The notes under the pieces: model-generated
Told to the model about the DNA's origin: nothing
Seen by the model: only the letters and a program-made list of their open reading frames with translations
The model's database searches: none
Assembly (NCBI GenBank): GCA_964016885.1
Contig: OZ024745.1
Coordinates: forward strand, 95,852,001-95,916,000
Reading direction: 5' to 3'
DNA length: 64,000 nt
DNA from: Eledone cirrhosa
Lineage: Eukaryota
Program-made: the position numbers and the translations under genes
Part shown: in pieces, positions 45,072-46,910 of the stretch
How positions within the stretch are numbered: the stretch's first letter is position 1
Layout of the letters: each line of letters starts with the position of its first letter

Positions 45072-45106
<35 letters not shown>

Positions 45107-45185
45107 TAACGAAGGAAATGTGGTAAGGAACCAGGTGGACCATAACGCACCAAAGTACTCAATACTTGAGGTAGTAGAGTGGGTA

Positions 45186-45296
45186 ATAGGAACCAGTAAG
45201 ACCCCGACAGCTGAGCTCAAGCCGTTTCGACGGCTAATTCAGAATTAGCCGTCGAAACGGCTTGAGCTCAGCTGTCGGGGTCTTACTGGTTCCTAT
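45186..45296. mobile_element. Perfect 111-bp palindrome (55-bp arms, 1-nt spacer) made of hammerhead stem II plus 3' half
   Basis: The centre is gacggctaattc-a-gaattagccgtc, followed directly by GAAA-CGGCT-tgagctc-AGCTG-TC-ggggtc on both strands. The left arm extends to ~45105. (TA)n on both sides. Confidence 0.8.
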
Positions 45297-45302
45297 ATAT
45301 AA

Positions 45303-45351
<49 letters not shown>

Positions 45352-45894
45352 CATACATTCTCAGTACATAAAAACCAAAAATTTGTCTTCATTGTTTATG
45401 TTTATATATAAAGCCCGGCGTTGCTCGGGGCTGCTCAGTAGCTGTGTTAAAGTTACAATGTTAAGTTCCTTTCTTAGCTTAAAAACTGTAGAGTCTACAG
45501 TGTAGACTTTCATGTGGTACTTTTGATTAATATTCCCTCAACCAGCAGTATGCCTTATGAAGTTAAGAAAACATAACCATAACTCGATTGTTAAAACAAA
45601 AGAGGATGCTGGGGATAAAAACTGCACTGATAATTATCAGTGCAGTTTTTATAGATTATAATCTATTAACAAAAATCGAAAATGTAAACACTGCAACATT
45701 TGTCTCAGAAAAAAAACATCAGCGTAACCAAACTATCAGTTATTTTGAAACAAAGAAATTGGTTGGACATGAAAAAAAAAAAAATGTAATTTCATCACCT
45801 ATCACCTCTCTGCACGACTGCGACTGCTGTCTGCACAACTTTATCGCCTATATCACCACTCTGCACGACTGTCTGTCTGCACAACTTTATCGCC

Positions 45895-46910
45895 TATAGC
45901 AGTAAAGCCCGGCGTTGCCCGGGGCTGCTTAGTAGCTGTGTTAAAGTTACAATGTTAAGTTCCTTTCACATTCATCTGTAGAACAAACGTAGCCCATGTG
46001 TCAAGTTTTGTGAAAATCGGTTGCGAACTCCAGAAGTTATGACGTTTTGTTGCATTGCACTGCAGTGCTTCAGTCGACTCCAAGGAAGTGGTTAGAGGGG
46101 GTTATCTGCCGGGAGGCCCTATAATCAATATCTGGAAAAATGAAAGTGCTCATGACCATCCGGAGTACAAAAGTAACCTATGTCTTAAGTTTGGTGAAAA
46201 TACTGTAGAAATGCATAAGGTTTACACACACACGCGCGCGCGCGTATGTGTTTGTGTGTGTGTATGTATTTGTGTGTGCGCATGTATATGTATGTGTATG
46301 TCCGTCGGCGCATACGTATGTACTGGCCTAAATCTTCACTATTTACTTCTACTATTTTAAGGCAAAGTTAAAATCCCGTCGAGGTTAACTTTGCCTTTCA
46401 TCCTTACGGGGTTGATAAAATAAAGTACCAGTAATGTACTAGGTGATTGCTGGCCTTGTGCCAAAAGTAGAAACAACTATTTTAATAACCTCTGTCATTT
46501 TTGTTTACAATTTTATTTACATCATTCTTAAACTCAGGGGCTGGAAATCATTCGGTTATTTTAAATAGAATATTAGTCTAACGACTCCATTTATACAATT
46601 AACTTGGTCTCGTCTTTGCATGAAATTGTTCTTCTCGGTCCACATAAAAACGTATTATCCTCGCTTTTTTCCATTCATTACCACGGAACGTCTTCACGAA
46701 CCAAAATATCGTTTTCCTGTTTTCCTTCGGTTGCAACGTTTCACGAAATATTTAATTCTGCGTTCACAGATTGAATTTTTTAGTTTAAGAATATCCCGTT
46801 AATGTTGAAAGCAGCGATTCTTTGCTTAAACTTTCTTTCTTTCTCAACCCTCTCCGTTTTTTCTCATAACCTCTCTCTCTCTCTCACTCATACCCTCCTC
46901 TCTCTCTCTC

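Follow-up and report, generated by a model that had tools for sequence, protein, structure and literature searches.

A perfect palindrome in Eledone cirrhosa as one of more than 10,000 head-to-head stubs of a young Penelope-like element

Penelope-like elements (PLEs) are already known to have inverted copies that are truncated, palindromes at their junctions and a tail on one side (PMC8557442; PMC3846280). In the account of the Hydra clade by Craig et al. (2021, PMC8557442), these elements, including Hydra-1_Obim, have a single ORF with RT and C-terminal GIY-YIG domains, a DKT motif, a CxCx5C linker, CxxC and CxH motifs without CCHH, a (TA)n target, a hammerhead in the pLTR, an inverted 5'-truncated copy and a tail at either end. 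The origin of the head-to-head inverted ends and one-sided tails of PLEs is called undefined in that account. The Poseidon element PAc of Anolis, a member of another clade, offers the biochemical counterpart: in vitro its protein cuts and extends both target strands, with two RT start sites that bound the tail, on an AT-rich target and with a hammerhead just upstream (Frangieh et al., 2024, PMC11167929). Ribozyme cleavage was not needed for insertion in that system, no RNA reads are reported to end at the cut site, and the completion of insertion is left unresolved there. Penelope of Adineta vaga (Arkhipova et al., 2013, PMC3846280) shows head-to-head inverted pLTRs, junction palindromes and an optional tail, as found here; those structures were read as self-priming on an antisense template, whereas our counts favour two sense-templated cDNAs joined end to end. 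PLE hammerheads are described as type I ribozymes in the pLTR with a palindromic loop 3, and U3-A8 is a known variant, reported as a covariant in Cercyon of Schistosoma mansoni (Cervera and De la Pena, 2014, PMC4209133). Both PMC4209133 and PMC11167929 leave open the question of in vivo cutting by PLE hammerheads. Non-LTR retrozymes (Li, Clavereau and Pollet, 2026, bioRxiv 10.64898/2026.07.22.740005) resemble the sequences studied here in being short, non-coding, PLE-derived and hammerhead-related, but they are head-to-tail repeats with a complete ribozyme in each unit, whereas the unit here is head-to-head and contains no complete ribozyme. A search of the openly accessible literature listed neither a proposal of two-cDNA joining for PLEs nor a report of genomic ends at the ribozyme site.

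The window, a 64,000-nt stretch of contig OZ024745.1 from Eledone cirrhosa, contains a palindrome whose two arms (45186-45240 and 45242-45296) are 55 nt each and 100% complementary, with a single A (45241) as spacer. Its fold has a z of -23.4, and equal stability was reached in 0 of 200 shuffles. A unique segment of 78 bp (45108-45185) lies on one side of the palindrome only, and arms, spacer and this tail make up a 189-bp unit with 10 CpG inside and TA-rich microsatellite on both flanks. The features are as follows:

45075..45107, no strand: target microsatellite (TA)n on the tail-side flank; 30 of 30 fetched identical copies also lie in TA-rich repeats, and 45105-45107 also fit the next bases of the parent (microhomology)
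45108..45185, minus strand: one-sided tail, 78 bp, 100% identical to L175:3210-3287, where it runs in frame into ORF P0001
45186..45240, minus strand: tail-bearing arm, the hammerhead 3' half (stem II 3' strand, GAAA, stem III, GUC, stem I 3' strand), with a predicted cut on this strand between 45206 and 45205
45240..45241, plus strand: head-to-head junction; the arms end at parent distances 54 and 56, with a 1-nt overlap
45242..45296, plus strand: tail-less mirror arm, with GAAA at 45254-45257, stem III at 45257-45275, GTC at 45274-45276 and GGGG at 45277-45280
45297..45350, no strand: TA/TG microsatellite on the tail-less flank, read from the sequence

An earlier sequence-only reading had described this locus as a perfect palindrome with 12-bp arms around the central A. 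The palindrome exists and its pairing is perfect, but the true arms are 55 bp and the 12 bp are their innermost portion only; likewise, the interval given did take in the 78-bp tail, although the tail was left undescribed. The order of ribozyme elements in the right arm is as that reading gave it: GAAA is followed by a 6-bp stem III (45257-45262 with 45270-45275, one G-U), whose loop (45263-45269) contains GAGCTC, and then by the GTC and GGGG listed above. Reduced-representation reads on the window stop at AATT within the arm, and the flanks are nearly without depth. Two other repeats lie nearby in the window, namely a 65-bp direct repeat (97%) just downstream at 45409-45473 and 45903-45967, which is multi-copy in read sets and belongs to a separate repeat family, and an AT-rich perfect palindrome at 45615-45652 with 19-bp arms and no spacer.

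The full-length parent was reached by following the sequence upstream of related arms. It lies at L175 (G000:C1:11225700-11232600), which consists of an inverted truncated copy, a partial tandem and a full unit; its arm and tail are 100% identical to those of the window and map to the pLTR/ORF-start region. ORF P0001 of L175 is open for 786 aa and carries the RT motifs FDI and YRDD and a C-terminal IYQC..YIG (GIY-YIG), while LRWR, DKT, CxCx5C, CxxC and CxH were identified by eye and CCHH is absent. A Pfam search of P0001 itself gave no match; its homologues number 2,054 at E<=1e-30, the best match being annotated PF01541. Family copies have the tail at either end relative to the ORF. A single ORF with RT and GIY-YIG, a pLTR, a partial tandem, an inverted 5'-truncated copy and a one-sided tail are the features of an EN+ Penelope-like element, and the DKT motif, CxCx5C linker, CxxC and CxH without CCHH, C-terminal EN and insertion in (TA)n are those of the Hydra clade, with which the pLTR hammerhead is also shared. 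Unlike the Hydra clade as described in PMC8557442, the parent has RWR where RWK is expected, a monomer of 3,117 bp where <3 kb is expected and a U3-A8 core, and its tail is 78 bp against the 30–40 bp given there for PLEs; Hydra-1_Obim was compared by its description. On this motif list, the parent is assigned as a young Penelope-like element with Hydra-clade motifs.

Readings as a DNA transposon or MITE, a Helitron-like or a DIRS-like element were dropped once the RT-GIY-YIG parent had been found. The one-sided tail, the 55 junction types in 66 copies and that parent do not fit a MITE or DNA transposon, for which symmetric terminal inverted repeats, a fixed structure and a partner transposase would be expected, and the head-to-tail units with a complete hammerhead each that define a non-LTR retrozyme are lacking. 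No parent ORF was found in the 10-kb stretches upstream of 14 CTGANGA-type matches. Other elements were met along the way. L115:648-6124, an older copy with 585-bp inverted ends at neither of which a tail was found, encloses an RT-GIY-YIG frame that is Hydra-like but more divergent and may belong to a second, nested family. A separate element, at L190:1140-6047, has inverted arms of 1.8 kb (98.8%) that carry back-to-back RT-like open frames.

Upstream of the arm, the parent has CCCC and then UUGANAA in 36 of 41 complete copies or CUGAGAA in the other 5; UUGANAA is the U3-A8 variant core, not CUGANGA. The MFE fold of L175:3070-3215 is a three-way junction with the core unpaired, and across 16 copies 92% of cells agree with the hammerhead pairing. 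The fold is no more stable than shuffles (z=0.44), no pair is changed on both sides in these 16 close copies of 91% identity, and Rfam returned no hammerhead match in the window or L175, only hairpin and microsatellite noise below gathering scores. With its core boxes and three helices, the parent carries a type I hammerhead that is predicted to self-cleave, and the right half of the palindrome is, as the sequence-only reading had it, the 3' half of a real hammerhead, that of a young retroelement. Compared with the hammerheads described in PMC4209133, stem III here has its full 5–6 bp, stem II is long and branched, and the stub keeps the 3' half only. The earlier proposal that a CTGANGA box had been replaced by the mirror of the 3' half is correct in that the unit has no CTGANGA, but the 5' box of the parent is UUGANAA. 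The search suggested with it, for cccc preceding CTGANGA, gave 40 matches with no common cccc stem I; these were flanks, junction inserts or sequence of another family. Nor is the palindrome centred on the stem II loop. In the parent, the corresponding point is on the 3' side of stem II; the native stem II is long, with its 5' strand and apex ~10–45 nt further upstream and outside the window copy, and the 12-bp hairpin at the window centre is a mirror image only. Neither the 5' catalytic box nor the stem I 5' strand was found upstream of the window arm on either strand. Because the 5' catalytic box is missing, the window copy is predicted to be incapable of cis self-cleavage, and in all likelihood it is a dead end of insertion and does not copy itself. 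The CUGAGAA core, in which C3 stands unmatched with A8, marks one subfamily (L139, L147, L156, L157, L373).

The window copy is one of more than 10,000 short head-to-head stubs of this young element. The genome holds 10,487 matches to two-armed stubs of the family, with many different centres, and the exact centre of the window has 483 dispersed matches. The 189-bp unit itself is repeated in at least 42 full-length matches of 100% identity among the matches listed (831 candidates, 40 scored). Opposite-strand joints at d=57-64 (d being the distance upstream of the arm end) are present in the raw reads of three other runs. Because of this dispersal at hundreds of sites and these joints in raw reads, an assembly artefact is unlikely. 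Runs X4, X6, X7 and X8, labelled as other organisms, contain 0.2–0.7 of the sampled words of the parent; X4 reads carry the arm, the tail and TA junctions, and the family is therefore common to at least one other labelled organism. At L005:1289-2120, four 189-bp units stand head to tail with (TA)n between them, and in the last of them the C of the CGAAA box is abolished by a change that both arms carry in mirror image.

The positions at which arms end are far from uniform. The youngest subfamily has 8,183 tail-bearing ends, and of the first 100 of these, 95 were scorable (five had no scorable tail-side arm; one duplicate, L208, was also left out). Tail-side arms end at d=54-64, an interval of 11 nt, in 59 of these 95, never at d=65-136, which spans the native stem II apex and 5' strand, and beyond it in 12. 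About 14 sampled ends have no second arm. Direct, non-inverted jumps reuse the same hotspot, at L415 (d=56 then d=54) and in the 257-bp units of L242 (d=63), and because these jumps use it without inversion, the d=54-64 point acts like the end of a template. Initiator-like TCA/TTA motifs, matched to a short consensus, place their A at d=64, the upper edge of the hotspot, and at d=60, one of its peaks. In Penelope of D. virilis, transcription is described as starting inside the pLTR from an internal promoter (PMC2377424). From its position and these motifs, the hotspot is rather more probably than otherwise an internal transcription start within hammerhead stem II, the other candidate being a hard stop of the RT in that stem. 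L242 (G000:C1:27009447-27010100) comprises three head-to-tail 257-bp units, each running from d=63 to ~115 nt beyond the tail, with an inverted arm as cap, and either repeated template jumps or a small circular template could account for the array.

A second, sharper class of ends lies at the ribozyme cut site. The base that directly follows GUC is at d=19; of the 95 tail-side arms, 5 end at d=18-19 and none at d=20-21, and other copies stop exactly at GGGG. The cut that the sequence-only reading had predicted after 45276 in the mirror arm coincides with these genomic ends. Of the 66 two-armed copies sampled, 3 have both arms ending at the cut site, and none has a single arm ending there. Very short stubs (1,030 matches) have both arms ending at 18-20 in 12 of 29 distinct fetched loci, one duplicate locus having been left out, and by eye ~38 of 100 listed fall into the cut-site class. 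The joint stopping of both arms fits cleaved RNA better than chance stalling, and the class may thus be an indirect record of in vivo self-cleavage of the hammerhead, whereas for PAc no RNA ends at the ribozyme site are reported (PMC11167929). Another 13 of the 29 loci are centred on stem III, and hairpin priming, microhomology joining or slippage could each yield them. The CUGAGAA subfamily is seemingly scarce among the listed cut-site stubs, ~4 of 38 by eye, and could serve as an internal control.

The junctions themselves are heterogeneous. The 66 sampled comprise 27 with microhomology, 17 blunt and 22 with an insert, several inserts being templated from the arm, and they fall into 55 distinct types; that of the window (54/56) is 1 of the 66, and L225 is of the same type. 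Complementary arms are 0–2 nt apart in 34 of 66 copies, and exact zero-spacer palindromes number 6. Relative to the tail, the window centre is A in 252 matches and T in 231 (p=0.36), within each arm variant. The tail side is longer, shorter or equal in 27, 23 and 16 of the 66. Where arms are strongly unequal, the tail-bearing one is the shorter in 7 sampled two-armed copies against 0 for the reverse; the shorter arm bears the tail in 18 versus 6 of 30 loci by script and in 61 versus 19 of 100 listed by eye, with internal-deletion rows left out (6 of 30 and 20 of 100, respectively). The asymmetry is not clean, given the ~14 sampled ends that lack a second arm and L267, where the tail side is long and the second arm has 11 nt. 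A short tail-side arm is expected where tail-primed RT trails the other RT. The arms are usually of the same subfamily, 81 of 102 being identical versus 20 expected, and mixed-subfamily arms occur at L218, L265, L209 and L373; in one comparison of the 66 copies, 3 with indels were left out. At three loci, an arm of the present family meets another hammerhead-bearing repeat family head to head, at the 5' part of the latter and with no TA run between; such chimeras are few, the three inter-family ones came from a biased pattern, and later recombination could also give them. That other family, 'T1', is also abundant (878 candidates), has a canonical CTGAAGA hammerhead (copies L075-L094) and is likewise head-to-head palindromic, with its centre ~125 nt upstream of its ribozyme near CAGTT; its joints to the studied family are at L031, L046 and L054 (L416-L418). 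That the 'T1' stretch is an internal part of the parent was ruled out, as it is a separate repeat family. Substitutions in stubs are one-sided in 111 cases and mirrored in 16; because they lie mostly on one arm, the arms are not being homogenized.

We consider it likely that each stub consists of two short cDNAs, one from each target end and usually of one RNA, end-joined at their 3' ends. In such a scheme, the endonuclease would cut both strands in (TA)n, one target end would prime where the tail ends and the other 78 nt upstream of it, as a rule on a single RNA, and both cDNAs would run to the RNA 5' end, usually 54–64 nt above the arm end and sometimes at the hammerhead cleavage site. The two cDNA 3' ends would then be joined bluntly, through 1–6 nt of microhomology or with short templated inserts, and the gaps filled; the window copy, with its ends at 54 and 56, would be one common outcome. 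The same two starts bounding the tail, with cutting and extension of both strands, are those described in vitro for the Anolis protein (PMC11167929). Against two-cDNA joining, the shared subfamily of arms (81 of 102) is also predicted by fold-back copying, and the stem III-centred loci (13 of 29) could arise by hairpin priming.

The most serious rival, though in our judgement an unlikely one, is that a single cDNA is extended off the 5' end of the RNA, snaps back on itself through little homology, if any, and copies itself, after which the endonuclease opens the hairpin on either strand at the TA-rich border of arm and tail, giving flip and flop isomers. Snap-back would explain why arms share their subfamily and their cut-site end (both sides in 3 of 66, one side in 0) and why the isomers are ~1:1 (252 versus 231); the tandem copy with a mirrored change at L005, four single-copy mirrored variants and the self-priming proposed for such palindromes in PMC3846280 are also in its favour. 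However, the 0–2 nt spacers in 34 of 66 copies leave no room for a loop, symmetric opening predicts 1:1 where an excess of short tail-side arms is found, and neither mixed-subfamily nor mixed-family arms are accommodated.

Propagation of the 189-bp unit by itself, as a non-autonomous MITE-like or retrozyme-like lineage with an inherited centre, is quite improbable. The identical copies (at least 42 at 100% among the matches listed) and the one tandem array of four units are what such an element would leave, but each arm variant is seen with this centre, which stands in either orientation, those variants are also found in long copies, the junction accounts for 1 of the 66 two-armed copies sampled, and the unit has no complete ribozyme.

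Perfect palindromes are unstable, and cruciform breakage or replication slippage could in principle have altered the centres once the stubs were in place, in which case they would be no record of the insertion reaction, or the palindrome could be an assembly artefact. The templated inserts are compatible with repair, slippage between direct repeats could have given the stem III class, and the window locus is not spanned by reads. Reshaping or artefact is nevertheless very improbable given how sharply ends fall at d=64 and d=19, their recurrence in non-palindromic jumps, the 483 dispersed matches of the centre, the opposite-strand joints in raw reads and the 111 one-sided versus 16 mirrored substitutions. 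Least tenable of all is the view of the sequence-only reading that the ribozyme's own hairpin primes the second strand, with the cDNA folding on native stem II: centres do cluster within the stem II region and a stem III-centred class exists, but the predicted junction, between a mirror arm and the native loop, has 0 exact matches in 3.0 Gb (one pattern with four ambiguous positions, from which shifted registers could escape) against 10,487 two-armed stubs, no arm ends at d=65-136, junction types number 55 in 66 copies, direct jumps share the same end point, and arms can be mixed.

A single palindrome of this kind is an ordinary product of a known element class, and its value lies in being one of thousands. 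The present contribution consists of a test that stem II priming fails, a hotspot of template ends, the class of ends at the cut site and the chimeric arms. Taken as a whole, we give an even chance to the reading of the stubs as a fossil record of PLE insertion, in which two cDNAs, primed from the two target ends on one RNA, were end-joined with no self-priming, arms ending at GUC/GGGG would mark in vivo U3-A8 self-cleavage, and the transcription start of the element itself would divide the hammerhead gene. Because this family is young, has an open ORF, shows arm ends clustered within 11 nt and at the cut site, and includes mixed-arm copies, it allows sharp predictions on how Penelope-like elements insert.
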